Source: Candidatus Eiseniibacteriota bacterium (GTDB taxonomy: Bacteria > ARS69). From it: a DNA stretch of 18,713 nucleotides. Positions 3,442 to 18,713 of the stretch are shown here, piece after piece (positions within the stretch are counted from its first letter, which is position 1; the number at the start of each line of letters is the position of its first letter). Under the pieces are notes generated by a model. That model saw only the letters and a program-made list of their open reading frames with translations, was not told where the DNA came from and ran no database searches. The stretch lies in NCBI GenBank assembly GCA_052390515.1, contig JBQTGV010000028.1:1-18713 (forward strand), written 5' to 3'. The translations under genes were made by a program, and so were the position numbers.

Positions 3442-3473
3442 CGGGACACGATACACGACCCGGAGGCGCGGCG

Positions 3474-4604
3474 TCACCGCCGGACCCCCGCCAGGACGCG
3501 CTGTACCGCGGCATGGACCGTGTCCGGAGTGATCAGGTCCTGGCAGCTCGGGCTGATGTCGCAGGTGCGCCGGTAGCACGGGTGGCAGGAGATCGGCGTG
3601 ACCACCTTCTCGCCGCGGCCGTACAGCTCGATCTCCTGCGGGCAGGTCGAGCCGAACAGAACCACCACCGGGACCTTCGCCGCGATGGCCAGGTGCATCC
3701 CCAGCGTGTCCCCGGTGACGACGAGGTCGCAGGCCGCCACGACCCCCGCGAAGACGGGAAGCGAGTGGTCCGTCCCGCTGTCCACGGCGGTGCCGCGCGC
3801 GGCGGCGGCGATGCCCGCGTTTCGCTCCCGCTCTTCCGGACCGCCGAGCAGCACCACGCGGCAGCCTTCCCGGTCCAGCCGCCGGGCGAGCTCCGCATAG
3901 CCGGCCTCGGTCCATGCCTTGTTGGCGAAGACGCTGCCCGCCCCGGTGTTGAAGCCCACGAGCGGACCGGATCCTTCGCGCAGGCCGGAGCGTCGAAGCG
4001 CCTCCCGCCCCGCCGGGAGGTTCGCCTGCACCGCCGGCACGTCGTACTCCTCGCCCTTCCACGGGAGGCCGCAAACCTCGAACGTGATGTCCTGGTAGGA
4101 GCGCTCGTTCTCGTGGAACTTGAGGCGATCGGAGAGGCCGAGATCGTACGCGTACCGCGCGGAAGGATGGAGCGGCACGAGAGCGCCGTTCACCTCGCGG
4201 CCGAAGCCGCGCCGCTCCCGGGTCTGCACGCGGGACGCGATCGCCGTCGGATACGGGTCCTTGTCGAGCGAAAGCACGAGATCGAAGCCCTCGACTTCGA
4301 GCAGCGCCGACGTCTCCCAGCCCGGGAAGAGCAGGCGGTGGATCCGCGGGTGTCCGCGAAGGAGCGGCGCGGAGGACTCCCCGGCGACCCAGGTCACCGA
4401 GACGGGACCGGGGCCGGCCGTCAGGGGGCGGAGGAGCGGGGTCGTGCGCAGGACGTCGCCCAGCGCACCGATCTTGAGGACGAGGATGCGCCGGCCGAGC
4501 GGCGAGTACTCCGGGCAGTCGGGGCATTCGCGCCGGTGAATGCAGGGGCGATCGCCCTCGAAGTGGCGGCAGTCGGTCTTCCAGCCCGTCTCGGTTGCGG
4601 ACAT
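3474..4604 (-). CDS. Glycosyltransferase family 9 (ADP-heptose:LPS heptosyltransferase-like)
   Basis: Motifs RILVLKIGALGDVLRTTP, VGFNTGAG...NKAW and VTGDTLGMHLAIAAKVPVVVLFGST. Start is ATG 4604 or 4622. Confidence 0.92.
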   Translation of the reverse strand: MSATETGWKTDCRHFEGDRPCIHRRECPDCPEYSPLGRRILVLKIGALGDVLRTTPLLRPLTAGPGPVSVTWVAGESSAPLLRGHPRIHRLLFPGWETSALLEVEGFDLVLSLDKDPYPTAIASRVQTRERRGFGREVNGALVPLHPSARYAYDLGLSDRLKFHENERSYQDITFEVCGLPWKGEEYDVPAVQANLPAGREALRRSGLREGSGPLVGFNTGAGSVFANKAWTEAGYAELARRLDREGCRVVLLGGPEERERNAGIAAAARGTAVDSGTDHSLPVFAGVVAACDLVVTGDTLGMHLAIAAKVPVVVLFGSTCPQEIELYGRGEKVVTPISCHPCYRRTCDISPSCQDLITPDTVHAAVQRVLAGVRR

Positions 4605-4647
4605 CGGATTCCCCGGTGGCATCGCTCGCGAAAGTCCCGCGAAAGCT

Positions 4648-4653
4648 AGTATA
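4648..4653 (-). promoter_or_regulatory. Candidate -10 box (TATACT) for the GT9-TlpA-DUF6029-Omp28 operon
   Basis: AGTATA on + reads TATACT on -, in an AT-richer patch of the divergent intergenic region. Confidence 0.4.
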
Positions 4654-4691
4654 ACGAAACGCGCGAAACCACCGATCGTTGCGGCGCCGGC

Positions 4692-4721
4692 TTGCCAGGG
4701 GGCGGACGCGCCAGTTACGAT
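4692..4721 (+). promoter_or_regulatory. Candidate sigma70 promoter for the GGDEF gene
   Basis: TTGCCA(4692-4697)-18 bp-TACGAT(4716-4721), about 40 bp upstream of ATG 4761. Confidence 0.45.
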
Positions 4722-4760
4722 CGCTGACAGGACTTCCGCACCCGCCCCCCCGGGACCCTG

Positions 4761-6203
4761 ATGCGCAAGGCACGACTGACTTATCAGGACCTGGCCCGCA
4801 AGCTGTTGGCCGGGAGCCTGCTACAGGGCGACGAGCGCCGCCTCGCCGAGGAACTGCTCAGCCTGGGACAAGGGGTCGAGACGGGGCGGCGGCTCGGCGC
4901 CCTGCTGGAGCGGCTGGCGGATCGGCACGCCCTGAACCGGCTCTCGCGCCCCGAAGACCGGCCCACGGTCCGCCGCTACCTCGATCCGACGAACGGCGAC
5001 CAGTGGTCGCTGGAGCTGCCCGGGCCGCGCCCGATCGCCGAGGCACCGGCGCCCCAGGCGAGTAGGGTTCCCGCCCAGGCGGAGCCCGGGCCACCGCCGG
5101 CCGCCGAGAAGCCGCGGCTCGTCCTGCCCGTCATGGAGGTGGACCCGGAGCCCGGAGTCTCGCGGCGGCTCCAGGACGAGCGTACCGGGGAGCCGCTGCG
5201 AACGCTCTTCGCCACCTTCGTGCCGTGCAAGACGCCGGACGAGCTGGGCGAGGCGCTCCTGCCGGTGCGAGGACAGATCCTGCAGCGCACGCGGGCCGGC
5301 TCGGTGCACTTCCACCTCGTGGGCGAAAGTGCCGGCGAGCTCGTTCCGGTGCCGTTCCGCGACGAGCCGCTTCCGGCGGCTGCCGCCCTGGGTGGGCGCG
5401 TCCCCGAACGCGTGCTCGGCGCAGGCCGCACGTTGCACGTGCCGAACCTCGCCGCGCCAGGCGCCGGCGGGGCTCCCGGCGAGAAGGGTGCGCTCGTCTC
5501 CGTTCCGATGATCGCCGGCGAGCGCGTCGTCGGTTTGATGGAGGTGCGGGCGGTGACTCCCGGGCCGTTCGATCCGGAGGAGCTCGCCTTCTTCTCGCTG
5601 GCCGGGATGATCGCCGGCGCCGCCGTGGGGCGCGCGGAGATCCTGGAGAAGCTCATCTACCTGGACAAGCTCACCGGCCTCTACAACCGCGCGTACTTCG
5701 ACGACCAGATCGAGCGCGAGATCGAGCGCGCCAACCGCTCCAACGAGCCGGTCGCGCTGCTCATGGCCGACCTCGACCACTTCAAGCGGATCAACGACAC
5801 GCACGGGCACGCCGCCGGGGACCTTGCTCTCGCGCACGTGGCTTCGCTCATCCGCGCGAACGTGCGGCAGATCGACGTGGCAGCGCGCTACGGCGGCGAG
5901 GAATTCGCCATCCTGCTGCCTTCCACCTCGCAGGCGCGCGCGCTGAGCACCGCGGAGCGGCTGCGCCGCGTCGTGCACGCGAGCCGTGCCGGCGAGATCA
6001 TTCCCGCGCTGGGAGACGCGAAGCTCTCGCTCTCGATCGGGCTCGCGCTCTATCCGGACGACGCGGCGACCTCTCGCCTGCTGTTCGATCGCGCCGACCG
6101 CGTGGCCCTCTACGCGGCGAAGAACCGCGGCCGCAACCGCGTGGTCTCCTGGGCCGACGCTCGCGGTACGCGGGAGTCGCTGCGGCCGGCGCGGGAGAGC
6201 TGA
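4761..6203 (+). CDS. GAF-GGDEF diguanylate cyclase
   Basis: DKLTGLYNR, DLDHFKRINDTHGHAAGD, RxxD I-site (RQID) and ARYGGEEF. A GAF-like segment precedes it (LVSVPMIAGERVVGLMEV...PFDPEEL). Confidence 0.95.
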   Translation: MRKARLTYQDLARKLLAGSLLQGDERRLAEELLSLGQGVETGRRLGALLERLADRHALNRLSRPEDRPTVRRYLDPTNGDQWSLELPGPRPIAEAPAPQASRVPAQAEPGPPPAAEKPRLVLPVMEVDPEPGVSRRLQDERTGEPLRTLFATFVPCKTPDELGEALLPVRGQILQRTRAGSVHFHLVGESAGELVPVPFRDEPLPAAAALGGRVPERVLGAGRTLHVPNLAAPGAGGAPGEKGALVSVPMIAGERVVGLMEVRAVTPGPFDPEELAFFSLAGMIAGAAVGRAEILEKLIYLDKLTGLYNRAYFDDQIEREIERANRSNEPVALLMADLDHFKRINDTHGHAAGDLALAHVASLIRANVRQIDVAARYGGEEFAILLPSTSQARALSTAERLRRVVHASRAGEIIPALGDAKLSLSIGLALYPDDAATSRLLFDRADRVALYAAKNRGRNRVVSWADARGTRESLRPARES

Positions 6204-6364: not shown

Positions 6365-8674
6365 TCACCGCCACTTCGAGACTTCCGGAATCTCCGCGAG
6401 CGCAGGCCGCTGCGCGAGCGCCGCGCGGACGTGGGCGCGGCCGTCGTCCGTTCGCCCCGTCTCCGCCAGCGCGATCCCGAGATGCGCGCGCACTTCCGGA
6501 TCGCCGGTCAGATCGAACGCCTTGCGGAGCGAGGCGAGGCCGTCGGCCGCCCGCCCGGCGCGGATCGAGGCCCAGCCGTGCGTGTCCAGGATCGCCGGAT
6601 CGTCCGGTGCCAGCTCGGCCGCGCGTGAGGCCAGCGTCCAGGCCTCGGACGGATCGAGCGACTCGTCGGCGAGGATCCATGCCAGGTTGTTCAGCGTCTC
6701 GACCTCGTCCGGCGCGAGCGCGAGGCCCGCGCGCAGCACCTCCACCGCTTCGCCGGAGCGCCCCGCGTGCGAGAGGAGCAACGCCTTGCCGTTGATCGCG
6801 TCGCGGCAGGCCGGATCGACGGCGAGCGAGCGGTCGTAGTCGGCGAGCGCACCGGCCTCGTCCCCGGATGCCTCACGGGCGCGGGCCAGCGCGGCCCTGG
6901 CGGCGGCATCCTCCGGCGCGAGGTCGGCGGCGCGGGCCAGCGCCTCGACCGCCTCGGCGTGCGCGCCGTCCTCCGAGAGCAGGGTCCCGAGAAGCGCCCA
7001 CGCGTCGGCATCCTCGGCGTCGGCCGCGACCGCGTCCCGGTAGCCGCGGACCGCCGCCGCTCGATCCCCGAGGCGGAGCCGGGCGAACGCGAGGTTCTTG
7101 CGCATCGTCCCGTCCGCGGGAGTCCGCTGGAGGATCTCCTCGCACAGCTCGGCGACCTCGGCCCAGCGCTCGTCCAGGCGCTTCAGCAGCGCGAGCCGTT
7201 CCAGCACCTTCACGTTCGCGGGATCCTCCGCGCGGAGCTCGACGAGGATCTTCTCGGCGTCCGCCGTGCGACCGTCGAGCATCAGCGTGGGCACTTCCTG
7301 GAAGCGGTTGAAGAAGTCGACCATGTCCTTGGGATCGGGGCCCGAGCGGCTCCACAGATCTGTGCGCGGCGCTTCGCCGGCGCCTCCCCCGCCGACGTAA
7401 CCGAGCCGCTCCAGCTGCTCGCGCACCAGCGGGTCGATCGAGGCTTCCTCGGCCGGCAGCGCGAGGCCGCGCGCATGGTGACGCTCCAGCGCGGCGGTGA
7501 GCTCGCGGACGATCGCGGGATGCGCGGCGGCGACGTCGCGCGCCTCGGTCGGATCGGACGCGAGATCGAACAGCTCCGGGCGTGGCGCGTCGATCAGCTT
7601 CCACGACCCGCGGCGGATCGAGCGCAGCCCGGACCAGCCGTAGTTGAGCTGCGGCAGCAGGCACTCCCCGAGCACGTCCTCCGTGGCCTGCGCCTCCCCC
7701 CGCGCCACGCCGAGCCGCGAGCGCCCGTCGATCCCGTCCGGCACCGGCACGCCGACCGCTTCCAGCAGCGTGGGCATCACGTCGACGAGCGAGACCGGTT
7801 CCGCCACCCGCGCCGCGACCGGCACTCCCGGCCCCGACAGCACCCAGGGCACGCGCAGCGTCGACTCGTACACGAAGAGACCGTGCGTCTGCTCTCCGTG
7901 ATCGCCGAGGGACTCTCCGTGATCGGCGGTCACCGCCACGGTGACCCGGGACGAAGGCCCGCCCAGCGCGGCGAGGATCCTGCCGATCTGCTCGTCGACG
8001 TAGGCGACTTCGCCCTCGTACGAACCGGGTCCGTAGCGGGTGGAGTGCGGAGGCGGCGGGCTGTACACCGCGTGCGGATCGAAGAAGTGGATCCAGGCGA
8101 AGAAGGGAGCGCGCTCCTCCCGGGCGGAGGCGAGCCAGGCGAGCAACGAGTCGGCGGTCTGCCCGGCCGGGCGCTCTTCGTAGAACAGCTTCTCCGCGAC
8201 GGCCTGCTCGTTTTCGTCGTGCACCGCCCCGGCCGCCAGCGCGGTGAAGTCGTCGTCGTACGTCGCGAAGCCTTGATCCGTCCCGAACTCGCGCCCGATC
8301 GGCACGGCGGAGACGAAAGCCGCGGTTCGCCAGCCGCGCTCGGAGAGGATCTCGGCGAGCGTCCGGGCGTCCGCGGGGAGCCGCCCGGTGCCGTTGTCGC
8401 GAATGGTGTGGCGGTCCGGGTAGAGCCCGGTCAGGATCGTGCAGTGCGAGGGCAACGTGAGCGGCACCGGCGCCGTGGCCTGCAGGAAGATCGTGCCGCG
8501 CTCGGCGATCCCGTCGATGGCGGGCGTTTCGCAGAGGCCGTGGCCGTAGCAGCCGATGCGATCGGCCCGGCACGTGTCGATGGTCACGAGCACGAGGCCG
8601 CCGGAGCCGCGCTCGCCGCATCCGGCGAGCAGAACCTGCGCAAGGAGAGCCGCGGCACAGGTCCCTCGCACCAC
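6365..8674 (-). CDS. Sulfatase-like hydrolase/transferase with C-terminal TPR repeats, probable lipoprotein
   Basis: LVLVTIDTCRAD, PLTLPSHCTILTGLYP, WIHFFDPH, TADHGESLGDHGE and ELFDLASDPTE, then several Ala-rich TPR helix pairs. Lipobox LLAG-C. GTG start at 8674 or 8671 is more plausible than 8734. Confidence 0.9.
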   Translation of the reverse strand: MVRGTCAAALLAQVLLAGCGERGSGGLVLVTIDTCRADRIGCYGHGLCETPAIDGIAERGTIFLQATAPVPLTLPSHCTILTGLYPDRHTIRDNGTGRLPADARTLAEILSERGWRTAAFVSAVPIGREFGTDQGFATYDDDFTALAAGAVHDENEQAVAEKLFYEERPAGQTADSLLAWLASAREERAPFFAWIHFFDPHAVYSPPPPHSTRYGPGSYEGEVAYVDEQIGRILAALGGPSSRVTVAVTADHGESLGDHGEQTHGLFVYESTLRVPWVLSGPGVPVAARVAEPVSLVDVMPTLLEAVGVPVPDGIDGRSRLGVARGEAQATEDVLGECLLPQLNYGWSGLRSIRRGSWKLIDAPRPELFDLASDPTEARDVAAAHPAIVRELTAALERHHARGLALPAEEASIDPLVREQLERLGYVGGGGAGEAPRTDLWSRSGPDPKDMVDFFNRFQEVPTLMLDGRTADAEKILVELRAEDPANVKVLERLALLKRLDERWAEVAELCEEILQRTPADGTMRKNLAFARLRLGDRAAAVRGYRDAVAADAEDADAWALLGTLLSEDGAHAEAVEALARAADLAPEDAAARAALARAREASGDEAGALADYDRSLAVDPACRDAINGKALLLSHAGRSGEAVEVLRAGLALAPDEVETLNNLAWILADESLDPSEAWTLASRAAELAPDDPAILDTHGWASIRAGRAADGLASLRKAFDLTGDPEVRAHLGIALAETGRTDDGRAHVRAALAQRPALAEIPEVSKWR

Positions 8675-8744
8675 GACCCTCCCCGCTCGGGTAAGAAAGG
8701 GTAAAACGTTATGCGCGCGTGCTCCGCCGGTCAACCGCGGGAGC

Positions 8745-8774
8745 TTGACACTCCCGTCATGACGTTTCTATGGT
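8745..8774 (+). promoter_or_regulatory. Candidate sigma70 promoter for the metalloprotease gene
   Basis: TTGACA(8745-8750)-18 bp-TATGGT(8769-8774), followed by a GGAGGAG RBS and ATG 8792. Confidence 0.55.
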
Positions 8775-8791
8775 CGGCTGGAGGAGTCTCC

Positions 8792-11059
8792 ATGTCCCCT
8801 GCGCGACTCGGCGCCCTCATCCTCGCCGTCGGCTGCGTGCCGCTCGCGCGCGCGGAGACCCCGTATCACCTGCTCCACCCCGAACCCGAGGTCGTGGCGC
8901 TCGCTCTGGGCCTCGAGGGCGAAGCCCTGGCGGCGGCGCTCGATCGGCTGGAGGCGGAGGGCGTGCGCGTTCCGGTCGCCGTGGCGGGCGTCGGGTTCGT
9001 GCTCGTCGATGAGCCGGGCCTCGACGCGAAGCTCGCGCGCGCGGGCATCGGGGCGCCGCTTCGCAGCGCGCTTTCCGAGGCGGACGCGGCGGCGGCACTC
9101 CGCGAGGCGCCCTCCGCCGGCGGGCTGCTGCGCTGGTGGGCCGACGGATTCAGCGTGCCGGAGTATTCGCCCGAGGAACGCGCCGTGCTCGACGAGGCGG
9201 CCCGGCAGGCCGAGATCTGCGCCGGCGCGAAGCGGCTGGAGGACGTCGTTTCGCTTCGCTGCGGCCCGAGCGCATGGGGCACCGTGCACTTCGCCGCCGG
9301 GCGATGCGTGGTGAGCCTCATCCTGCCGGAGAGCGTGGGTCCGTCGAACGTGTTCGATTGGAACAGCGCCGACGTCAGCAAGGTGCGGTCCGAGGTGATT
9401 CGTTCCCTGGACTGGTGGTCGCTCAAATCGGGGCACCGCCTGTCATTCGTGCTGGTGGATCACGGGACGGTGGCCACCGACGAGGAACCCGCACTGCTCT
9501 CCATGGCCGACGAGGACCTGTACATCGAGGACTGCCTCACGAACCTCGGTTACACGACGACGAACTGCCCGTACCAGCAGCTCGGCGAGATGAACGAGGC
9601 ACTGAAGCAGCGGCACGGCGGGCACTGGGCCTACACTCAGTTCGTGCTCAACGCGGAGTCGTTCCCGGGCAGCGCGGCGCTCGCGTACGCGTACCTCGGG
9701 GGGCCTCACACCGTCGCCCTGCTCGGCAACGGCGTGCTCACGCTCGAGGAGCTGGATCACGTCGTCTGCCACGAGATGGGTCACATCTTCCAGGCGGCGG
9801 ACGAGTATTCGGGAGCTTGCTCGGGATGCAACGGGGGACCTTACGGCTACCTCGACGCGCGCAACGGGAACTGCATCAGCTGCCCGACCCAGACCGGCGC
9901 CTGCGTCATGCGCGGCTCCTCGCAGTACACCACGTCGCAGATGCACGATCTGGAGAACCAGGTCCACCCCTGCGCGTTCACGAAGCAGATGGCAGGCATC
10001 TGGGACTCGGATCTCGACGGGGTCTGGGATGTGCTGGAGACCTACCCCGAGACCGTCATGCTGAGCGCCGTCCCCGATACGATCGACGCCCCGGAGTCGC
10101 TCCGGCTGCAGGGCCGCACCTGGGACACGCCCTACCCCGCGCCGGCGCGATACACGACGCCGGTCACGGTGAACCGCATCAACCGCGTGGAGTATCGCGT
10201 CGACGGCAGCGCGACGAGACAGGCGCAGGCGCTGGACGGCCTGTATACGGCCGTGTCCGAGGACTTCGAGTTCTCGCTGCCGCCGCTCGGCGGAGGAACC
10301 CACTTCGCCCTGATCCAGGGCGTGAATTCCATGGGCATCCCGGACCCGACCCCGGCGCGGATCGACTTCTTCATCTACGACGTGAAGCTGGTCCGCGACG
10401 AGATCGAGGTGCTTCAGGAGGGCCCGGATATCGTGGTCGTCTGGAAGGTCGACGGCGAGGACTTCGGCAGCACCTACGAGCTGTACCGACGGCTCGGCAT
10501 CGACGCGCCGGAGGAGCTGCTGGCCACGCTCACTTCCAGCGGCGTCCGCAACGAGCGCTTCGCGCACTGGGACCGGCAGGCGCGCGCCGGCACCGAGTAC
10601 GTGTACCGCCTGGTGGTCGACATCCCCGACAAGGGGCGGAAGGAGCTGGGGCTGGGGCGTCTCGAGGCCACCATCGCGCCGCCGGTGGGCAAGATCGCCG
10701 CGGTCGCGCCGAATCCCTCGCGCGGGAACGTGCTGGTCTCCGTCACCGTCCCGGTGGGGCCGCAGCCGGACGCGCCGGACATCCTCATCCCGCAGGCGGG
10801 CGGTCTTCGGGGCGAGGAAGACGATGACGGCGGAAGCGGATCCTCGCTCCTGTGGCGGGACGTGCGCATCCGCGTGCATGACGTGCGCGGTCGGCTCGTG
10901 CGGGACCTCGGCCGGTTCCGCGAGCAGGAGACGCGCACGTTCAACGTCGGGTGGGACGGGCGGTACCGGGACGGAACCTCCGCTCCCCCCGGCGTCTACT
11001 TCGTGCGGATCACGCTCGAGTACGACGAGGCGTTCGAGAGGATCGTGCTGATCCGCTAG
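8792..11059 (+). CDS. Secreted zinc metalloprotease (HExxH) with Ig-like domains and FlgD-Ig/T9SS-like C-terminal domain
   Basis: GGAGGAG RBS and signal peptide MSPARLGALILAVGCVPLARA. Zinc motif HEMGHIFQAADEY with a downstream CVM candidate Met-turn. C-terminus PNPSRG...IRVHDVRGRLVR...WDGR...PPGVYFVRI...RIVLIR. Confidence 0.85.
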   Translation: MSPARLGALILAVGCVPLARAETPYHLLHPEPEVVALALGLEGEALAAALDRLEAEGVRVPVAVAGVGFVLVDEPGLDAKLARAGIGAPLRSALSEADAAAALREAPSAGGLLRWWADGFSVPEYSPEERAVLDEAARQAEICAGAKRLEDVVSLRCGPSAWGTVHFAAGRCVVSLILPESVGPSNVFDWNSADVSKVRSEVIRSLDWWSLKSGHRLSFVLVDHGTVATDEEPALLSMADEDLYIEDCLTNLGYTTTNCPYQQLGEMNEALKQRHGGHWAYTQFVLNAESFPGSAALAYAYLGGPHTVALLGNGVLTLEELDHVVCHEMGHIFQAADEYSGACSGCNGGPYGYLDARNGNCISCPTQTGACVMRGSSQYTTSQMHDLENQVHPCAFTKQMAGIWDSDLDGVWDVLETYPETVMLSAVPDTIDAPESLRLQGRTWDTPYPAPARYTTPVTVNRINRVEYRVDGSATRQAQALDGLYTAVSEDFEFSLPPLGGGTHFALIQGVNSMGIPDPTPARIDFFIYDVKLVRDEIEVLQEGPDIVVVWKVDGEDFGSTYELYRRLGIDAPEELLATLTSSGVRNERFAHWDRQARAGTEYVYRLVVDIPDKGRKELGLGRLEATIAPPVGKIAAVAPNPSRGNVLVSVTVPVGPQPDAPDILIPQAGGLRGEEDDDGGSGSSLLWRDVRIRVHDVRGRLVRDLGRFREQETRTFNVGWDGRYRDGTSAPPGVYFVRITLEYDEAFERIVLIR

Positions 11060-12000
11060 GCTCTTGCCGCGCGCCGCCGGAGCGAGACACCCAGGAACAC
11101 GGCGACGAGCAGCGCCGCGACGAGGATCGGGACGAGCAGCGGGGGCCCGCCGGCGTCTCCCGCGGGCGCCGCTCCCTGGGGTCGGACCCAGTGGCGGTAG
11201 TCCACCTTCCCCTTGTCCCGGCCCGACTTGGCGCGGTCGTTACCGTCCTGCAGAGCGATGATGTCGGCGGGCCAGCCCTTGCGATCCATCTCCAGCGTCG
11301 TCTCCCAGCCCCAGTCGTTGTGCGTCGCGACGATGTCGCTCCGGCTCGTGTTCACGATGGAGGCCTGGTTGTCGTAGATCTTGTTGCCGTTCTCCGGGCT
11401 CCCACCGATCAGAGGGCGAGCCGACTTGCCGCTGATGCTGATGGCCTGCGAGCCGGATCCGCGGACGGTGTTGCGGAAGATCTCCGGCGAAGAGGCGCGA
11501 ATGAGCAGGCCGAACGCGTTGCAGTCGTCGATGACGTTTTCCTCGATCCTCGCGTCCGAGAAGTGCAGGTGGATACCCCACCCGAAACCGACGATGCGAT
11601 TCCCGCGGATCGTCGGCTGCGCGTGGTCGACGTAGATGGCGCATCCGGCGAGGCCGCCGGCATCGAACGTGAACCCCTCGATGAGCGTCGAGCGGTCGCA
11701 GCCCTCCGGCACCTCCATCAGGCGTTCCTCGGTGGGCTTCTTGCCGAGCCCGGGGCTCACCAGGATCGTCGAGTCGGGTCCCTGCGCCGCGCGGAGGGTG
11801 ACTCCCGGGCGAAGCTGGATCATCTCGAGGTAGCGTCCCGGCGCGACCAGCACCGTGTCGCCGGGGGCGGCGGCCATGACCCCGGCCTGGATGGTGGGCT
11901 GCTCCGCGGGTACGTGCACCGTCGCGGCGCGCGTTCCCGGGGCGAACACCGAGACCGCCATCAGCGCGGCACAGGAGCCGGAAAGAGCGGACGCTCTCAC
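11056..12000 (-). CDS. Right-handed parallel beta-helix (pectin-lyase-like/NosD-like) protein with C-terminal membrane anchor
   Basis: Signal peptide, then ATVHVPAEQPTIQAGVMAAAPGDTVLVAPGRY and repeated IxxNxI rungs. It ends in a hydrophobic helix plus RRR. The GTG start overlaps the upstream TGA (GTGA). Confidence 0.85.
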   Translation of the reverse strand: MRASALSGSCAALMAVSVFAPGTRAATVHVPAEQPTIQAGVMAAAPGDTVLVAPGRYLEMIQLRPGVTLRAAQGPDSTILVSPGLGKKPTEERLMEVPEGCDRSTLIEGFTFDAGGLAGCAIYVDHAQPTIRGNRIVGFGWGIHLHFSDARIEENVIDDCNAFGLLIRASSPEIFRNTVRGSGSQAISISGKSARPLIGGSPENGNKIYDNQASIVNTSRSDIVATHNDWGWETTLEMDRKGWPADIIALQDGNDRAKSGRDKGKVDYRHWVRPQGAAPAGDAGGPPLLVPILVAALLVAVFLGVSLRRRAARA

Positions 12001-13922
12001 GAATCATTCCCTCCCTCTGCGAGGCGCTGCCGCGCCCGCTGCAAGTTCTCGAAGGCCCGCGGGTGATCCGGTCGGACGGCCACGGCGCGCTCCCACAACG
12101 GAACCGCCTCTGGCAGCCGACCCGCCCGCGCCAGCAGGACCCCCCAGTTGTTCCATGCATCGGCGAAGGTCGAGTCCTGCGCGACCGCTCGGCGATACAG
12201 GGCTTCCACCTCTTCGCCGCCCCGGCCGAGCCGCTCGAGGCACAGGGCGTGATTGTACAGCGCGGGGGCGTCTTCCAAGCCGGCCGCCTCCGCCGCAGCG
12301 TACGCCTTCTCGGCATCCTCCGTCCTTCCGAGCTTCTCCAGGGCCTGGGCCATCGAAGCGAGGTTCTTCCCGTCCCCGGGGTCCAGGATCTGCTCGCGGC
12401 GGAAGGCCTCCACCGCGGCCTCGGCGTTTCCCAGATCCAGATACATCGTTCCGAGGTTGAGGTTCCCTTCGGGATAGGCGGGATCCGACTCGAGCGTGCG
12501 GAGCTGCCATTCCAGCGCTTGGCGGAGGTCGCCGTTCGTCCGGTGGACGTTGGCCACCGACTGGTAGAACTGCGCCGGGGGCGGCGCATACTCCCGCGTC
12601 CACGGATTCACGTCGACCAGAAAGGCCGCCGCCGCGGTCGCCACGGTGGGCAGGGCCCCGCGCAAGCCCCCGCGACGCATCCGCTCCCACAGCCAGCGGC
12701 CTCCTTCGACGGCGAAGATCGCGAGTAGCGGCCGTAGCGGCACCCGGTACCGTCCGGTCACGAAGAACAGGATCACGGTGACCGAGTACACCGCGGCGAA
12801 CAGGATGACGATGCGCACAGGCCCGTCGCCGCGCCTCCACAGCGCGATCGCGCCGACCACGGCCAGCGGCATCATGACGGTGAGCACGTGCAGGAACGGA
12901 AGCCACGCGGGCACGAACTCGCGGAAGAACAGCGCGTCGTCCCGGTTGTTGCCGAACTCGACTCCGGAGAGGAGGTAGACGACCTTGCGCGCGGTGAGCA
13001 CGATCCCGTCGAGCGGGTTCTCCCGCCACCACTCCCGCGCCCGCGCGTACCAGTGATCGGACACCTCGGAGGGCAGCAGCTTTCGCCCCTCGGCCTCCTC
13101 GGCCAAGGCGATCGCGTCCTCGTAGCCGCCCCACCAGTCGACGCGGAAGATCGAGGGCGCGGTCGCCGACCAGCCGTTGGCCTCCGCATTGTTGCCCAGG
13201 AAGAAGTTCAGTCCGCCCTGCCATGCAACCAGGACGAGATCCCCTCCGGCGCGCCAGTTGACCAGCGTGACCGGCAGTACGAGGAGGCACGTGCCGGCGG
13301 TGAGCGCGAGCGCACGACGCCACCGCGGCGGCTTCCAGCCGAGCGCCACGACGGCAAGCACCGGGGCGAAGAGCAGCACGTTCGGCCGCGTCACGGCGAA
13401 GGCGCCCAGGCCGAGACCTGCGGCGAGCCAGCGCGTCGGGGCGCCCGTCTCCATTGCACGGAGGATCAACAGGACGAGCAGCGCGGAGAGCGGCGCGAGG
13501 AGAGCCTCGAGCAGGAGCTCAGCTTCGAAGTAGATCAGCATCCCGTCGAGCGCGGTCACGACCGCGGCGAGACCGGCCAAGCCCGGCCGCCCGGGAAGGA
13601 GCCGCCGCGCGATGGCCCACACCAGCAGCGGGGTCGCCGCGCCGAGCAGGAGCTGGGCCCCGCGGACAGCCGTAAAATCGGGCCCGCCGGCCAGCCGGTA
13701 GGCCCCACCCAGCAGGAACGGGTAGAGCGGCGCCCGGAAGAACGGGATCCGGGACGTCAGATCCCCGCCGGCGATCTCCCGGGCCCACAGATCGTGGTAT
13801 CCCTCGTCCATCACGGGCGCGGCAAAGTACGGGTTTTCACGGACTTGCACGAAGTAAACCGCGCGGAGCAGGAGCGAGAGGCCGACGGCCACCCAGGGAA
13901 CTTTCCGCGCGTCGAACCGCAC
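11997..13922 (-). CDS. GT-C superfamily (GT39/PMT-like) membrane glycosyltransferase with C-terminal TPRs
   Basis: First-loop MDEGYH...FFRAPLYP, many TM segments, TRPN, GGLNFFLGNN and RYRVP motifs, then TPR repeats (YNHALCLERLGR, WNNWGVLLARAGR). AAAGGA RBS before the GTG. Confidence 0.85.
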   Translation of the reverse strand: MRFDARKVPWVAVGLSLLLRAVYFVQVRENPYFAAPVMDEGYHDLWAREIAGGDLTSRIPFFRAPLYPFLLGGAYRLAGGPDFTAVRGAQLLLGAATPLLVWAIARRLLPGRPGLAGLAAVVTALDGMLIYFEAELLLEALLAPLSALLVLLILRAMETGAPTRWLAAGLGLGAFAVTRPNVLLFAPVLAVVALGWKPPRWRRALALTAGTCLLVLPVTLVNWRAGGDLVLVAWQGGLNFFLGNNAEANGWSATAPSIFRVDWWGGYEDAIALAEEAEGRKLLPSEVSDHWYARAREWWRENPLDGIVLTARKVVYLLSGVEFGNNRDDALFFREFVPAWLPFLHVLTVMMPLAVVGAIALWRRGDGPVRIVILFAAVYSVTVILFFVTGRYRVPLRPLLAIFAVEGGRWLWERMRRGGLRGALPTVATAAAAFLVDVNPWTREYAPPPAQFYQSVANVHRTNGDLRQALEWQLRTLESDPAYPEGNLNLGTMYLDLGNAEAAVEAFRREQILDPGDGKNLASMAQALEKLGRTEDAEKAYAAAEAAGLEDAPALYNHALCLERLGRGGEEVEALYRRAVAQDSTFADAWNNWGVLLARAGRLPEAVPLWERAVAVRPDHPRAFENLQRARQRLAEGGNDS

Positions 13923-13968
13923 GTCCGTCCTTTCGGCAAGTTTGGGGTTGCTTGGGCTTCGCCCGCGG

Positions 13969-13977
13969 ATCTTAGCA
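13969..13977 (-). promoter_or_regulatory. Candidate extended -10 (TGcTAAGAT) for the GT-C/beta-helix operon
   Basis: ATCTTAGCA on + reads TGCTAAGAT on -, about 47 bp upstream of GTG 13922. Confidence 0.45.
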
Positions 13978-14033
13978 GGCGACGGAAGTGCGGGCCAGGA
14001 GCCCGGATCTGCGTGGGTCCGCGCAGGTCGGAC

Positions 14034-14066
14034 CGGTTGACACGCCGTCGCGCACTGTGAGAGTAT
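14034..14066 (+). promoter_or_regulatory. Candidate promoter of cassette 1 (CGGTTGACACG-N12-GTGAGAG)
   Basis: Perfect TTGACA at 14037-14042. The same bipartite motif with the same spacing recurs at 15870-15899. Confidence 0.6.
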
Positions 14067-14262
14067 TTCTTCGCATCTTTGAAGAAGGTAACTCCGCCCG
14101 ACCAGGTTGAGGACCCGTCTTCAAGAGGTGAATCGGGCCTTTCGCCGAAGCGTCTTCCGCGTCTGGCCGCTCCGTCGGGAGTACAGCCACCCGTGAGAGT
14201 CGACGGAGCCGGGGTGGCGATAACTAGCTAGTTCCTCTTCCTTGCTTAGGGGGTCTAAGCAC

Positions 14263-14973
14263 ATGCGCAAGTTCTTCCTGACTGCCTTCACTCTCGTTGC
14301 GGTGATGGCGCTTGCGACGTCCGCTCTCGCGCTCGAGAAGGCGTCCAGGTCCATGATCGACGACGGTCGCGGTGATGACTGGGGCGCCACCAACTCGTTC
14401 ACGCTCCGGTACTACAACACCTGCACCGGCTGGCTCTGGGTTTGGAGTGGCTGGGCTCACGGCGAAGCGCTCGGAGTGTGCGTCGATGCGTGTACTCCCG
14501 GCTCCACGAACCTCGCCGCGACCTGGACCCTGACCTTCACCCCGCAGCCCTCGGGCTACGGATTCACCGGCACGATCTCGGTCCAGGACCGTTGCGACTG
14601 CACGGGTAACGTGCTGGCCTCGCAGCCCTGGCTCCCGATCTCCGGCTTCACCCCGCACGTCTGGAACCTCGCCGTGCCGGGGAGCTTCCTCGTCAACATC
14701 AGCTGGGCGGCTCCGGCGGGATTCACGAACGGTTCCTCGATCGCCTCGGACCACCCGGCGGTCGGCCCGACGGGTCCGCAGTCCTGCGGAACCTGCTTCC
14801 CGCTGAACCGCGCCGTGCATAGCAGGTACTTCGGCGTCGGTGGCGCGTACTGCCCCGGCACCACCCTCAGCGACGGCATCTGCGCGATCGAGTGGGCCAT
14901 GGACATCGGCCTGAAGTGCGTCGTGTCCGTCGAAGAAGCCAGCTGGGGTCAGATCAAGAACCTGTACCAGTAA
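14263..14973 (+). CDS. Secreted Cys-rich hypothetical protein, paralog A1 (236 aa), C-terminal SWGQIKNLYQ
   Basis: Sec signal MRKFFLTAFTLVAVMALATSALA and 10 Cys in the mature part. Clear homology to three downstream ORFs. Confidence 0.92.
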   Translation: MRKFFLTAFTLVAVMALATSALALEKASRSMIDDGRGDDWGATNSFTLRYYNTCTGWLWVWSGWAHGEALGVCVDACTPGSTNLAATWTLTFTPQPSGYGFTGTISVQDRCDCTGNVLASQPWLPISGFTPHVWNLAVPGSFLVNISWAAPAGFTNGSSIASDHPAVGPTGPQSCGTCFPLNRAVHSRYFGVGGAYCPGTTLSDGICAIEWAMDIGLKCVVSVEEASWGQIKNLYQ

Positions 14974-14997
14974 CAGGTTCGCACCTCTGTTGACTGG

Positions 14998-15032
14998 AGA
15001 GGGCGCCGGGCGACCGGCGCCCTCTTGCTTTT
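14998..15032 (+). terminator. Intrinsic terminator-like / stabilising hairpin between A1 and B1
   Basis: 12-bp perfect stem AGAGGGCGCCGG, GCGA tetraloop, CCGGCGCCCTCT, then TGCTTTT. Confidence 0.7.
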
Positions 15033-15046
15033 CGAGGAGGACTCCA

Positions 15047-15748
15047 ATGCGAAACGGACTCCTGAAGGCGACTGCGTGCGCCGCGCTCCTCGGTGTCTCT
15101 TCCCCCGCGCTGGCGCTCGAGAAACACTCCCGAGCGATGGATGACCGCGACCCGGAGTGGGGCGCGACGACCACCGTGACGATCCGGTACTACAACACCT
15201 GTACCGGCTGGCTCTGGGTCTGGAACGGCTGGGCCAACGGCGAAGCGCTCGGCGTGTGTGTGGACAAGCCGGTATTCCTCTGTTTGCTCGGTGCGACCTG
15301 GACGCTGACGTTCACTCCGCAGCCTTCGGGCTACGGCTTCACCGGCACGATCTCGGTCCAGGATCGTTGCGACTGCACGGGTAACGTGCTGGCCTCGCAG
15401 CCCTGGCTCCCGGGCTCCGGGTTCACCCCGCACGTGTGGGGCATCAACGTGCCGTCGACGTTCCTCATCAACATCACCTGGGCGGCTCCGGCAGGATTCA
15501 CGAACGGTTCCGCGATCGCCTCGGACCACCCCGCTGTCGGCCCGACGGGTCCGCAGTCTTGCGGAACCTGCTTCCCGAGCAATCGCAGCATTCACTCCAA
15601 GTACTTCGGCGTGGGAGGCGCGTACTGCCCGGGTACGGCGCTCAACGACGGCATCTGCGACGTCGAGTTCGCGATGGACATCGGCGCGAAGTGCACTGAC
15701 TGGGCCGACGAGATCAGCTGGGGGCAGGTCAAGAACCTGTACCGCTGA
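15047..15748 (+). CDS. Secreted Cys-rich hypothetical protein, paralog B1 (233 aa), C-terminal SWGQVKNLYR
   Basis: GAGGAGG RBS before ATG 15047, signal peptide ending SPALA, 10 mature Cys, homologous to A1/A2/B2. Confidence 0.92.
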   Translation: MRNGLLKATACAALLGVSSPALALEKHSRAMDDRDPEWGATTTVTIRYYNTCTGWLWVWNGWANGEALGVCVDKPVFLCLLGATWTLTFTPQPSGYGFTGTISVQDRCDCTGNVLASQPWLPGSGFTPHVWGINVPSTFLINITWAAPAGFTNGSAIASDHPAVGPTGPQSCGTCFPSNRSIHSKYFGVGGAYCPGTALNDGICDVEFAMDIGAKCTDWADEISWGQVKNLYR

Positions 15749-15869
15749 AGGGTCGAGCCACTCGCGGAGCACGTCCGTCGTCTGCCGTCCGGCCAGCGCC
15801 GCCTCTGCCGGGCGCTTCCCCCGCCGCTCCACGAGCGCGGATCGATGTCTCACTGCCCTCCAGCCACGA

Positions 15870-15899
15870 CGGTTGACACGAGGCCGTTCGAAGTGAGAG
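15870..15899 (+). promoter_or_regulatory. Candidate promoter of cassette 2 (CGGTTGACACG-N12-GTGAGAG)
   Basis: TTGACA at 15873-15878 and GTGAGAG at 15893-15899. Copy of the motif at 14034-14063. Confidence 0.55.
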
Positions 15900-16016
15900 C
15901 GTCGTTCTTGCCCCTGAAAGGGGGCCACTCTCCCCTCCGGCTCGGGTCGGTGAACCATCCTCCGACAGGATGGCGATGACTCGCCGACCCTCCTCCTTCC
16001 TCGGGAGGTCCGGGTC

Positions 16017-16736
16017 ATGAGCAAACGGTTCCTGACAGCTCTCGCGGTCGTCGGCGGAGTCATGCTGACGACGCCCGCCTCAGCGCTGGAGAAGGCGTCC
16101 AGGTCCTTGATCGACGACGGGCGCGGTGACGACTGGGGCGCCTGGGCCTCCGTGACCCTCCGGTACTTCAACACCTGCACCGGCTGGCTCTGGGTCTGGA
16201 GCGGCTGGGCCAACGGCGAAGCGCTCGGCGTGTGCGTCGATGGGTGCGGTCCGGCTCCCGGCCCCACGAACCTCGCCGCGACCTGGGCCCTGACCTTCAC
16301 CCCGCAGCCCTCTGGCTACGGATTCACCGGCACGATCTCGGTCCAGGACCGTTGCGACTGCACGGGTAACGTGCTGGCCTCGCAGCCCTGGCTCCCGATC
16401 TTCGGGTTCACCCCGCATGTCTGGAACATCTACGTGCCGGCGGCCTTCCTCATCCACATCAACTGGGCGGCTCCGGCGGGATTCACCAACGGTTCCGCGA
16501 TCGCCTCGGACCACCCGGCGGTCGGCCCGACGGGTCCGCAGTCCTGCGGAATCTGCTTCCCGCTGAACCGCGCCGTGCATAGCAAGTACTTCGGCGTCGG
16601 TGGCGCGTACTGCCCCGGCACCGTCCTCAGCGACGGCATCTGCGCAGTCGAGTTCGCGATCGACATCGGCCTGAAGTTTTGCAGGATATCCGTCGAGGAA
16701 GCGAGCTGGGGTCAGATCAAGAGCCTGTATCAGTGA
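16017..16736 (+). CDS. Secreted Cys-rich hypothetical protein, paralog A2 (239 aa), C-terminal SWGQIKSLYQ
   Basis: GGAGG RBS, signal peptide ending PASA, 10 mature Cys, long DNA tracts identical to A1. Confidence 0.92.
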   Translation: MSKRFLTALAVVGGVMLTTPASALEKASRSLIDDGRGDDWGAWASVTLRYFNTCTGWLWVWSGWANGEALGVCVDGCGPAPGPTNLAATWALTFTPQPSGYGFTGTISVQDRCDCTGNVLASQPWLPIFGFTPHVWNIYVPAAFLIHINWAAPAGFTNGSAIASDHPAVGPTGPQSCGICFPLNRAVHSKYFGVGGAYCPGTVLSDGICAVEFAIDIGLKFCRISVEEASWGQIKSLYQ

Positions 16737-16798
16737 CGCAGGCCCGCTGACTGCGCGGGGAGCCGGGTGACCGTCGCCCTATCTTCAAGGAGGATCCG

Positions 16799-17500
16799 AT
16801 GCGCAACACGTTCCTCGAGTCGATGACCTGCGCCGCGCTCCTCGGTGCTTCCTCCCCCGCGCTGGCGCTCGAGAAACACTCCCGAGCGATGGATGATACG
16901 CGGGAGTCGGAGTGGGCCACGTCGTGCTCTGTGACGATCCGGTACTACAACAACTGCACGGGCTGGCTCTGGGTCTGGAACCAGTGGCAGCCCGGAGAAG
17001 AGATCGGCGTGTGCGGAAAGGCGCCGTTTCAGTGGTCGGGGCTCGCGGCGACGTGGACGCTCACTTTCACGCCGCAGCCATCCGGTTACGGTTTCACCGG
17101 CACGATCTCGGTCGAGAGTGGCTGCTGCTCCGGCCCGACCCTCGCGTCCCAGCCCTGGCTCCCGATCAGCGGCTTCACCCCCCACGCATGGAACGCGAAC
17201 GTGCCTCAGAACTTCCTCGTCCGAATCACCTGGGCAGCACCGCCGGGCTACACCAACGGCTCCGCGATCGCGACCGACCACCCGACGGCGGGACCGACCG
17301 GCCCGCAGGCGTGCGGGACGTGCTACCCCGCGAACCGGATCGTGCGCAGCCGGTTGTTCGGCGTCGGCGGCGTATACTGCCCCGGCACCATGCTCAACGA
17401 CTACGTGTGTGACGTCGAGTTCGTCATGGACTTCGGCATGAAATTATGCGTCGGGACCGACCCCGTCAGCTGGGGCGAAGTGAAGAACCTGTACCGCTGA
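16799..17500 (+). CDS. Secreted Cys-rich hypothetical protein, paralog B2 (233 aa), C-terminal SWGEVKNLYR
   Basis: AAGGAGG RBS, signal peptide nearly the same as B1, 10 mature Cys. Most divergent body of the four. Confidence 0.92.
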   Translation: MRNTFLESMTCAALLGASSPALALEKHSRAMDDTRESEWATSCSVTIRYYNNCTGWLWVWNQWQPGEEIGVCGKAPFQWSGLAATWTLTFTPQPSGYGFTGTISVESGCCSGPTLASQPWLPISGFTPHAWNANVPQNFLVRITWAAPPGYTNGSAIATDHPTAGPTGPQACGTCYPANRIVRSRLFGVGGVYCPGTMLNDYVCDVEFVMDFGMKLCVGTDPVSWGEVKNLYR

Positions 17501-17537: not shown

Positions 17538-18713
17538 GTGTGTCGAACGAATCCGGGAGGCTTCGCTCTCCGAAGTCTCTCGCTCCTAGCGGCAGCGCTC
17601 CTCTCCGGTTGCGGCTCCCCCCCGCCGCAGGCCTTCCGTTCCGACGCCGTCCTGCTGGTGACCTTCGACACGTTCTCGGTGTACCGCGCCGGCTGCTACG
17701 GCGCTCCCCACGTCCGCACACCCGAGCTCGACCGCCTCGCCCGGGCCGGCGTGCAGGTCCGCTTCGCCGTGTCCCCCGCGCCGCTGACGCTCCCTTCCCA
17801 CGCCACGCTGCTGACCGGCCTAGACCCGCCGCAGCACGGCGTCCGCGAGAACGGGCTCTTCGTGCTGGCCGCCGAACAGGTCACCGTCCCCGAGCTGCTG
17901 CCCGAGGACGTCGCCACGGGAGCGTTCGTCGGGGCGTTCCCGGTCGCGTCCCGCTTCGGGCTGGCCCAGGGGTTCGACGTGTACGATGACGAGTTCCCGC
18001 CCAGGCAAGGCGCCCGCCAGAGGCACCAGCCCATGCGCCGCGCGAACGCGGTGTTCGAGTCGGCGGCAGCCTGGCTCACGGGCCCCGCAGCGGGCGAACG
18101 ACCCTTCGCCTGGGTCCACGCCTTCGACCCGCATTATCCGTACGAGCCGCCCATCCCGTGGGGGCGAATCGCCGGGGAGCTGGGCGGCGGCGTCTACGAG
18201 GGCGAGGTGGGCTACCTGGACCGCGAGCTCGGCCGCTTCCTCCGCCGCATCGGCGCGGACGGAACCGACGGCCGCGCCACGGTGATCCTGACGGCGGATC
18301 ACGGCGAATCCCTCGGCGACCACGTGGAGATCACCCACGGCCTCTTCGTGTACGACGCGACCCAGCTCGTGCCGCTGATCGCAGCCGGGCCGGGCATCTC
18401 CGCTCGGCTCGACCTTGCGCAGCGGCCGCTCGCCGATGTGGCGCCGACGCTGCTGCGTGCTTACGGCATTGCGCCAGCCGCCGGCATGCCGGGCGTGCCG
18501 CTGCAGCAGACCGTCTCGCCCGGGCGGGAGGCGTACGTGGAGACGAAGCACACCGAGCTGCTGCGGGGCTGGAGCCCGCTCCACGGCCTTCGCACCGAGC
18601 GCTGGAAGTACGTGCGCGCCCCGCGCCCGGAGCTCTACGATCTCGTCATGGATCCGGGAGAGACGGCGAACCTGGTGGACGCGGAGCCGGAGCTGGCCGC
18701 GCGGTTCGCCGCG
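17538..18713 (+). CDS. Sulfatase-like hydrolase/transferase lipoprotein (3' truncated by window edge; not in ORF track)
   Basis: Manual translation from GTG 17538 gives MCRTNPGGFALRSLSLLAAALLSG-C..., VLLVTFDT, PLTLPSHATLLTG, WVHAFDPHYPY, TADHGESLGDH and WKYVRAPRPELYDL. Paralog of 6365..8674. Confidence 0.9.
   Translation, partial: MCRTNPGGFALRSLSLLAAALLSGCGSPPPQAFRSDAVLLVTFDTFSVYRAGCYGAPHVRTPELDRLARAGVQVRFAVSPAPLTLPSHATLLTGLDPPQHGVRENGLFVLAAEQVTVPELLPEDVATGAFVGAFPVASRFGLAQGFDVYDDEFPPRQGARQRHQPMRRANAVFESAAAWLTGPAAGERPFAWVHAFDPHYPYEPPIPWGRIAGELGGGVYEGEVGYLDRELGRFLRRIGADGTDGRATVILTADHGESLGDHVEITHGLFVYDATQLVPLIAAGPGISARLDLAQRPLADVAPTLLRAYGIAPAAGMPGVPLQQTVSPGREAYVETKHTELLRGWSPLHGLRTERWKYVRAPRPELYDLVMDPGETANLVDAEPELAARFAA

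Follow-up and report, generated by a model that had tools for sequence, protein, structure and literature searches.

Four secreted, cysteine-rich paralogs of a candidate phylum bacterium carry a short C-terminal tag that may act as a sorting signal on dozens of unrelated proteins

The stretch analyzed here, referred to as the window, comprises 18,713 nucleotides of a Candidatus Eiseniibacteriota genome (assembly GCA_052390515.1, contig JBQTGV010000028.1) with a G+C content of about 70%. Between positions 14263 and 17500 its plus strand carries four paralogous open reading frames (ORFs) of 236, 233, 239, and 233 amino acids, and the proteins they encode, together with the short tag at their C-termini, are the subject of this report. 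Paralog 1 (14263-14973) is followed by paralog 2 (15047-15748), paralog 3 (16017-16736), and paralog 4 (16799-17500), the most diverged copy. The 233 residues of paralog 2 are counted from an ATG that has GAGGAGGA 8 nt 5' of it; an alternative, longer frame would begin at a TTG at 14990. Ribosome-binding sites of the GGAGG type precede paralogs 2 to 4 (GGGAGG for paralog 3), and paralog 1 has GGGGG. Paralogs 2, 3, and 4 are 74, 83, and 63% identical to paralog 1, with a mean column identity of 80% across all four (alignment A1). Because nucleotide identity between pairs ranges from 0.68 to 0.88 and the ratio of nonsynonymous to synonymous substitution from 0.34 to 0.50, these are diverged coding paralogs under moderate purifying selection and not chance ORFs.

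All four N-termini run from a basic to a hydrophobic stretch and end in A-x-A followed by LEK, of which L24, E25, and K26 are invariant. The signal peptide of paralog 1 spans residues 1-23 (14263-14331), with MRKFFLTAFTLVAVMALATSALA directly before the LEK of the mature chain, and the equivalent peptides of paralogs 2, 3, and 4 lie at 15047-15115, 16017-16085, and 16799-16867, a pattern that points to Sec-dependent export. Signal peptides of the four paralogs were judged by eye, those of other proteins by a crude home-made score. Each mature chain holds 10 cysteines, one of them shifted in position in paralog 4, and the motifs RY(Y/F)NxCTGWLWVW, TFTPQPSGYGFTGTISV, DHPxxGPTGPQxCGxC, and FGVGGxYCPGT are all found in the alignment. 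The ORFs, the alignment, and the cysteine counts thus bear out a first-pass annotation of the window, which had described four secreted, disulfide-stabilized 10-cysteine paralogs with LEK mature ends and these motifs. We regard the four genes as tandem duplicates, each likely encoding a Sec-exported protein of about 21 kDa with five probable disulfides. At the other end, all four proteins terminate in SWG(Q/E)(I/V)K(N/S)LY(Q/R). In paralog 1 the module containing this tag extends from C219 to Q236 (14917-14970, CVVSVEEASWGQIKNLYQ), and in paralogs 2, 3, and 4 it occupies 15692-15745, 16680-16733, and 17447-17497, all on the plus strand.

This ending is not confined to the array. A six-frame scan of the source genome (4.27 Mb in 223 contigs, 95% complete) for W[GAS]x[IV]Kxx[YF] returned 53 matches, 51 of which lie 0-10 residues before a stop codon, and 36 of those 51 exactly one residue before it. 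The tag closes 49 ORFs of at least 60 amino acids on many contigs, about 45 of them unrelated to the paralogs. Aligned over these proteins, the module extends to approximately C-x-P-[VT]-[SG]-[VL]-E-x-x-[ST]-W-G-x-[VI]-K-x-[LG]-Y-[RQ], of which the paralogs carry the form C-x-P-V-S-V-E-x-x-[ST]-W-G-x-[IV]-K-x-L-Y-[RQ]-COOH. Among the 49, serine or threonine stands at -1 in 43, glycine follows the tryptophan in 45, and the tyrosine is kept in 44; glutamate at -4 (22) and cysteine at -10 or -9 (24) are found in about half. Third codon positions vary freely among the DNA matches, and the tag is therefore conserved at the protein level. Most carriers have signal-peptide-like N-termini. A Pfam scan of the passengers, covering 40 of the 44 carriers outside the window with open frames of at least 100 amino acids, assigned 13 to Beta_helix and 21 to no family, with single instances of DUF5123 only, a plastocyanin-like domain, LTD (lamin-tail), CHRD, an NHL propeller, and a weak CBM96. 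Since the tag sits on many unrelated folds, it is modular and independent of the fold to which it is attached: it is no part of the paralogs' own domain and is common to dozens of unrelated secreted proteins. The first-pass annotation, which looked for a local system, missed this genome-wide element, and with it the interest of the array moves toward a sorting-type signal.

The tag extends beyond this genome. We searched with a degenerate DNA pattern for W-G-x-[IVM]-K-x-x-[YF]-x-stop and used the same pattern reversed as a control. All 12 sampled genomes of the phylum, which belong to one family, have 20-56 matches each. Among 401 genomes around and beyond the phylum, 11 from seven other families have 8-60 matches (G070, G077, G094/G254/G400, G163/G317, G240/G386, G214, and G380), three more have 4-5, and the remainder 0-2, which is also the range of the reversed control. 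When 30 matches from three outside genomes were followed to their loci, they resolved to 30 distinct ORFs of 58-509 amino acids with the tag at the end, typically in the form P-V-E-x-x-S-W-G-x-I-K-A-[LM]-Y-R, many with clear signal peptides. Of five outside genomes tested, G077 and G240 contain the family to which the paralogs belong, and G163 gives a weak match; family members there also end in the tag, which in one case closes a 688-residue frame. Neither Pfam nor NCBIfam contains the tag, and a literature search, which did not cover all journals and excluded preprint supplements, found no paper naming or describing it. C-terminal sorting tags are already a known kind of element; this one, short, free of a membrane span, and present in several phyla, looks like an undescribed example.

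Several observations tie the tag to the type IX secretion system (T9SS). The source genome encodes a SprA_N match (41.8 bits, in a 2105-residue frame on contig C174), a PorV match (39.1 bits), and two weaker PorV-like proteins, the PorV-like frames lying on contigs C108, C17, and C73, so that on these SprA-like and PorV-like matches it has both translocon and shuttle. It also contains 150 matches to PF13860 (FlgD_ig), and a hidden Markov model (HMM) built from 40 of them recovered 174 ORFs, 170 of which carry the domain within 15 residues of the stop; these would represent an unusually large putative T9SS cargo set for a genome of this size. The C-terminal domains (CTDs) so defined end in T-[RK]-K-V-V-L-L-R, with arginine last in 126 of 170. 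The tail has an invariant lysine at -5 before a final L-Y-R, and in the CTDs K/R stands at -6 before a final L-L-R, a resemblance that does not amount to homology. The two elements also meet on related passengers. Four long family members that we examined (655-797 residues) have the paralogs' domain at the N-terminus, an InlB-B-repeat, CARDB, or laminin-G middle part, and a FlgD_ig/Por_Secre_tail domain at the C-terminus in place of the tail, and 11 of 48 tail carriers in the source genome have a passenger homolog among the CTD proteins. Tail and CTD are therefore alternative endings on related passengers. Across genomes, a SprA_N match was present in 23 of 23 with at least eight tag matches and in 86 of 378 others; as the 23 represent about eight independent lineages, possibly of one superphylum, this association is suggestive only. 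The number of PorV-like copies, considered as a marker of a second shuttle, was rejected, being 2-6 in tag-rich and 1-12 in SprA-positive, tag-free genomes. PMC11285876 reports for T9SS CTDs of Porphyromonas a conserved C-terminal motif in which the last strand carries a conserved lysine; according to earlier work cited there, the targeting signal of HBP35 lies within its last 22 residues. Given that short signal and that lysine motif, it is conceivable by analogy that a 20-residue tail could serve as a minimal CTD-like signal. Within 6 kb of the 49 tag carriers, a CTD-protein cluster was the only gene group found to recur.

The body of the paralogs belongs to no named family. The four proteins have no match in Pfam (E ≤ 0.01) or NCBIfam (E ≤ 0.1, choice-of-anchor models included), none in PHROGs or PADLOC scans, and in a profile search of PDB sequences the best hit, at E 0.053, is an unrelated enzyme. 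A profile of the family retrieved 363 proteins at E ≤ 1e-3 among 8000 candidates scored; the 120 matches listed include no Pfam domain and no source name other than "hypothetical protein", and a few come from assemblies labeled Gemmatimonadetes or simply bacterium. An exhaustive search of cluster representatives gave 221 matches at E ≤ 1e-3, 172 at E ≤ 1e-10, and 67 at E ≤ 1e-30. These searches place the paralogs in a real, large, and unnamed family, and the first-pass view of them as unrecognised holds, the HMM search of the mature domain it had called for having led to this unnamed family and to no characterized one. Over 37 diverse members, Y50, N52, C54, W57, W59, W61, G98, T102, G103, and C113 are invariant, as are G168, T170, G171, C175, G176, C178, R183, D204, C207, and, within the tag, W228 and K232; the A-L-E after the signal peptide and D-H-P are conserved in at least 90%. 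A protein atlas placed look-alike clusters in Eiseniibacteriota, Zixiibacteriota, and Krumholzibacteriota, which are leads and not alignments. One atlas cluster pointed at 0.95 to DUF7451, and we discarded it because PF24248 has no match to the four proteins; PF24248 was likewise silent in the source genome and in five outside tag-bearing genomes, where its absence is unproven since the controls were silent too.

Structural prediction offers a fold for this family. An AlphaFold2 model built from the family alignment (mean predicted local distance difference test score, pLDDT, 80.2; predicted TM score 0.75) shows a beta-sandwich over approximately residues 24-220, a jelly roll that agrees with the beta-sandwich foreseen in the first-pass annotation, followed by a short C-terminal helix. 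In a comparison of this model with 48,161 representative chains, VIA-align found Z 13.1 to Cwp84 (chain 4ci7_A; root-mean-square deviation 3.8 over 183 aligned residues), 11.2 to a baseplate protein of phage phi812, 10.3 to a PBCV-1 capsid protein, 8.4 to both a cyanophage capsid protein and a PHR domain, and 6-8 to carbohydrate-binding modules, among them CBM35, CBM6, and BT0996-C (6.1-7.8). Foldseek gave TM scores of 0.42-0.46 to Cwp84 with its lectin-like domain. The matches share 5-17% identity with the model, and we read the mature domain as a predicted jelly-roll beta-sandwich of the binding-module class, which implies membership in none of the matched families. Like the lectin-like domain of Clostridioides difficile Cwp84, CBM6 and CBM35, and the receptor-binding jelly rolls of phages, the paralogs are predicted to form a single jelly roll of similar size; they differ from all of these in sequence, with no profile match, and we identified no counterpart there of their ten cysteines or of the YYNxCTGWxWxW and DHPxxGPTGPxxCGxC motifs. 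In the G-W-x-W-x-W strand, the invariant W57, W59, and W61 would lie on one face and form a candidate binding platform. The family itself is thus an uncharacterized one with a common fold. Complex predictions for two copies of the mature chain (alignment A2, residues 24-236) reached 0.02 and 0.01, where the mark is 0.42, a result that speaks neither for nor against binding.

The genes around the array are as follows. Divergent from it lies a GT-C glycosyltransferase (PMT_2) with C-terminal TPR repeats (11997-13922, minus strand), and 3' of it a sulfatase-family lipoprotein (17538-18713, plus strand, 3' end open); the first-pass annotation had named both flanks, and PMT_2, TPR, and Sulfatase matches and a lipobox-like LLSGC confirm them. 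Beyond the glycosyltransferase are a secreted right-handed beta-helix protein (11056-12000, minus strand), a HEMGH zinc-metalloprotease-like protein (8711-11059, plus strand), and a protein with a sulfatase-family domain and TPR repeats (6365-8734, minus strand). The beta-helix protein closes with a Pro/Gly-rich stretch followed by a hydrophobic span and RRRAARA, and resembles the tripartite PEP-CTERM/MYXO-CTERM anchor, with no recognizable signature motif; ORF 10951-12066, on the opposite strand, has no family match and is probably spurious. The metalloprotease-like protein has a weak FlgD_ig-type C-terminal domain (24.5 bits, below cut-off) and is a putative T9SS cargo. True sulfatases carry a formylglycine motif, Cys/Ser...Arg in the form C-x-P-x-R. 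Both sulfatase-family proteins of the window seem to lack it, that at 17538 reading T-L-P-S-H there, and judging from these residues they may not be true sulfatases but other members of the alkaline-phosphatase superfamily, transferases or hydrolases acting on phosphoesters or other substrates. Further out are a ResA/TlpA-like periplasmic thiol-disulfide oxidoreductase with a long N-terminal extension (2878-4773, minus strand), which could be relevant to 10-cysteine proteins, and a GAF-GGDEF diguanylate cyclase (4761-6203, plus strand).

The divergent intergenic region, which includes the 5' leader of paralog 1 (13923-14262, plus strand), offers hints of expression. RNA-library contigs from four studies (soil, freshwater, outdoor) match 14092 or 14112 to 14418 with 0-5 differing letters per piece, at a mean word depth of 240-430 in two runs. 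In one such contig, adaptor-like letters stand directly before 14092, which hints weakly at an RNA 5' end some 170 nt ahead of the paralog 1 ATG. A 654-nt RNA-library contig corresponds to 14313-14945 of paralog 1 at about 92% and a 508-nt contig to 16169-16677 of paralog 3 at about 93%; stretches with no such cover, for instance 15760-16131, are uninformative. Many database homologs of the family stand alone on contigs of about 900-1000 nt, and these, together with the RNA-library contigs, fit abundant family transcripts. The promoter scan found no sigma-70-like site, the window has no Rfam family, the leader shows no excess folding (z -0.2), and BLASTN of the leader against the loci of relatives gave only a 44-nt match at 84% in one of them, and no conservation. 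A GC-rich hairpin followed by a T-run at 15008-15022 (plus strand), between paralogs 1 and 2, is terminator-like; the region has two such sites against a mean of 1.6 in shuffled sequence, no excess.

We propose that the four genes encode secreted, disulfide-stabilized jelly-roll binding proteins of an amplified, loop-variable family, whose C-terminal tag routes them to the cell surface or retains them there, a reading to which we give somewhat better than an even chance. In this scheme, the proteins would pass through the Sec system and form their disulfides in the periplasm; the free C-terminal tag would then be recognized by a common receptor or processing enzyme, and that step would deliver the protein to the surface or medium, or hold it there, in parallel to or via the T9SS, whose own cargo would be the roughly 170 FlgD_ig-CTD proteins encoded in this genome. 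At the cell surface, the jelly-roll domain would bind a ligand, most likely a glycan, with the invariant W-x-W-x-W strand and the DHP...GPTGP..CGxC loop as candidate binding elements, and the tandem copies would be variants differing mainly in their loops. What we infer in this scheme is that the proteins leave the periplasm, that the tag is recognized, that the T9SS is involved, and which kind of ligand is bound; granted the rest, we consider a mechanistic link between tag and T9SS about evenly balanced.

Several points weigh against this proposal. We found no receptor, protease, or transporter for the tag and no gene that marks the genomes containing it, which PorV-like counts do not separate either. 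The co-occurrence with SprA reduces to the few lineages noted above, possibly of a superphylum in which SprA is common; 86 of 109 SprA-positive genomes are tag-free, and two of the genomes with 4-5 tag matches (G090 and G365) have no SprA match. The fold matches are generic, Z scores of 6-8 being common among beta-sandwiches, Foldseek returned a single PDB match at E ≤ 1e-3 (a phage tailspike, TM score 0.26), and sugar-binding residues were not identified in the jelly-roll domain. The tail helix is predicted at a pLDDT of only about 45-54, and the signal peptides were assigned with no trained predictor. RNA libraries can hold DNA, which leaves transcription unproven, and their depth cannot rank the genes.

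A more far-reaching form of the proposal, which we hold tentatively and at less than even probability, is that [ST]WGx[IV]KxLY[RQ]-COOH with its P-V-S-V-E lead-in constitutes an undescribed sorting signal, free of a transmembrane segment, that is used by 20-60 secreted proteins per genome in several T9SS-bearing candidate phyla. Either the T9SS would read the signal, as a minimal substitute for the 80-residue CTD, or a new receptor or processing enzyme would; the paralogs, as members of the most amplified cargo family, would form a variable, lectin-like coat at the cell surface.

The tail could instead be a plain C-terminal amphipathic membrane anchor of periplasmic proteins, comparable to that of the penicillin-binding protein PBP5, with no receptor and no further export. 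The spacing of W, I/V, and L-Y at i, i+3, and i+6/7, with K and R between them, would suit a membrane-binding helix and counts to that extent against a sorting signal; AlphaFold draws residues 228-235 as a helix, and the lack of any machinery gene among our findings is what this alternative would predict. Such helices, however, tolerate wide variation, whereas the W, G, K, and Y of the tag and its one-residue distance to the C-terminus (36 of 51) are retained in unrelated proteins from eight families of genomes, and 8-10 residues would be very short for an anchor. Homologous passengers, moreover, otherwise bear a T9SS CTD, which exports its cargo out of the cell. Because W, G, K, and Y and the one-residue C-terminal distance are so strictly kept, we favor a specific recognition pocket over a generic helix and consider the anchor unlikely.

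Copy number and gene order bear on a different proposal, which develops the first-pass annotation: the four proteins would serve as major and minor (or alternative) subunits of an adhesive structure or surface polymer, which the neighboring GT-C/TPR and sulfatase-like enzymes would assemble and modify as one dedicated system. The source genome has six places with family sequence: the four in the window, a fifth on contig C119, and a sixth, shorter than the others, on contig C74. The latter (1366-1854, plus strand) encodes a 162-residue member in which a signal peptide, ALEK, and an N-terminal half-domain lead directly into the tail (ending in VEATSWGRVKGIYE). Relatives are encoded at 36 loci in about 10 assemblies (from contigs of one genome per species, with flanks rescanned with the family HMM), and one closed chromosome holds more than 20 copies. 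The loci carry 1-8 copies each, with tandem arrays of 2-8 at 12 of the 36: eight at L011, four at L015, three at L007, L009, L031, L030, and L037, two at others, and many singles. Every genome with the family thus holds several copies, as arrays of 2-8 and as scattered single genes. The order of the window (sulfatase-TPR, beta-helix protein, GT-C/TPR, array, sulfatase) recurs at five loci of other genera, L007-L011, where the arrays have 1, 1, 3, 3, or 8 copies and the GT-C proteins are 54-61% identical against 44-48% for the array genes. The GT-C gene is syntenic at all five and the sulfatase gene at L007, L008, and L010; the metalloprotease-like gene is kept at two, and the oxidoreductase and diguanylate cyclase also adjoin L011.

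These arrays and this conserved order are what a polymer system would lead one to expect, and the conserved Thr/Ser-rich loops of the paralogs could be O-glycosylation sites. A second GT-C gene, on contig C178 (1321-2514, plus strand), is divergent from an unrelated tail carrier, a beta-helix protein (113-1171, minus strand), as the GT-C gene of the window is from the array, a weak hint of a link between GT-C enzymes and tail-bearing proteins; with about 12 GT-C paralogs and about 49 tail carriers in the genome, however, some adjacency is expected. A sixth related locus has a distant GT-C, but GT-C and sulfatase neighbors are missing at 30 of the 36, including a second synteny group (L012, L013, L017-L020, and L038) flanked entirely differently, with the remaining loci sharing no flanks, and the copies on C119 and C74 lie on contigs with no GT-C match. 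The recurrence of the arrays was therefore borne out, but not that of the neighbors, which, found at the window and five of the 36 loci, belong to one orthologous locus only. Pfam and NCBIfam scans of the window ORFs detected no chaperone, usher, sortase, or pilin-like gene. Nothing we found supports a division into major and minor polymer subunits, and a polymer system appears improbable.

The tail might also be a docking peptide that binds non-covalently, in the manner of cohesin and dockerin or by strand addition, to a surface partner such as the FlgD_ig-CTD proteins encoded upstream, so that its carriers ride on or decorate T9SS cargo. About 170 ORFs of the 4.27-Mb genome encode CTD proteins. 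Of the 49 tail genes, 13 follow a CTD gene on the same strand at a stop-to-stop distance of at most 1.7 kb, and a CTD-cluster member is present within 6 kb of 18 carriers. Few of these cases are independent, however, since five of the 13 pairs are copies of one duplicated cassette, and genes for secreted proteins cluster in any event. The four paralogs themselves have no CTD gene directly upstream, the nearest being 3.9 kb away with two opposite-strand genes between. We regard docking as quite improbable. The cassette, present at least five times in the source genome, consists of a FlgD_ig-CTD protein (a frame of about 1200-1650 residues) followed by a beta-helix protein of about 440 residues ending in GCGSVSVETRSWGRIKEGYR; examples are C5 15263-19858, C58 52345-56040, C207 18243-22172, C177 263-3886, and C35 27378-32318. 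Finally, it is highly improbable that the mature domain has an enzymatic, metal-binding, or redox function using the D-H...C-G-x-C...R...D residues, since, although D163, H164, C175, C178, R183, and D204 are invariant or nearly so in the 37 members and a CxxC beside His and Asp could bind a metal or form a redox pair, an even count of ten cysteines in an exported chain fits disulfides, no enzyme family matches the sequence, and the structural neighbors are binding or structural modules.

The reading we prefer, a surface-routing tag on jelly-roll binding proteins, invites comparison with known C-terminal signals. Like T9SS CTDs (Por_Secre_tail type A and FlgD_ig-like), the tail stands at the extreme C-terminus of unrelated Sec-exported proteins, tens per genome; it is interchangeable with them on homologous passengers, occurs at eight or more matches only in genomes with SprA (23 of 23), and resembles them in its hydrophobic-hydrophobic-Arg ending with a conserved lysine a few residues earlier. 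It differs in being 10-20 residues long where the CTD is an Ig-like beta-sandwich of 70-100: the four proteins have no match to PF18962, PF13860, or TIGR04183, and 18 residues follow the last jelly-roll cysteine. Tail carriers are also smaller, with a median open frame of 271 amino acids against 771 for CTD proteins. The "choice-of-anchor" concept of NCBIfam denotes a passenger domain whose homologs bear different C-terminal sorting elements, and the jelly-roll family, with its alternative endings, can be likened to such families, although it matches none of their models at E ≤ 0.1; an atlas row for choice-of-anchor R at 0.86 is a lead and not a match. PEP-CTERM, MYXO-CTERM, GlyGly-CTERM, and LPXTG are likewise short tags at the C-terminus, tripartite in build, confined to certain lineages, and borne by dozens of secreted proteins in a genome; they are detectable by the same kind of genome-wide recurrence as the tail. 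These signals combine a signature motif with a transmembrane helix and a basic cluster, and membrane enzymes cleave them. The tail, by contrast, lacks any hydrophobic span, the protein stopping one residue past the tyrosine (36 of 51). Two sources describe an invariant cysteine in MYXO-CTERM-type signals (10.1101/2023.06.07.544157, PMC11980579), and about half of the tails have a cysteine 9-10 residues before the tryptophan.

LPXTG, PEP-CTERM, MYXO-CTERM, and the T9SS CTD each led to dedicated machinery and to prediction of the surface proteome for whole phyla. The tag described here is short, span-free, and at a fixed distance from the C-terminus; about 50 unrelated secreted proteins of the source genome carry it, and uncultured bacteria of at least eight families have it. 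Should it prove to be a sorting signal, it would delimit, for these lineages, a new group of surface or secreted proteins and would provide a handle on the machinery, via phylogenetic profiling or peptide-receptor prediction. It may also show that T9SS-type export works with a minimal signal. The jelly-roll family would then be the main amplified cargo of this route and a candidate for the dominant variable surface lectin of the organism.

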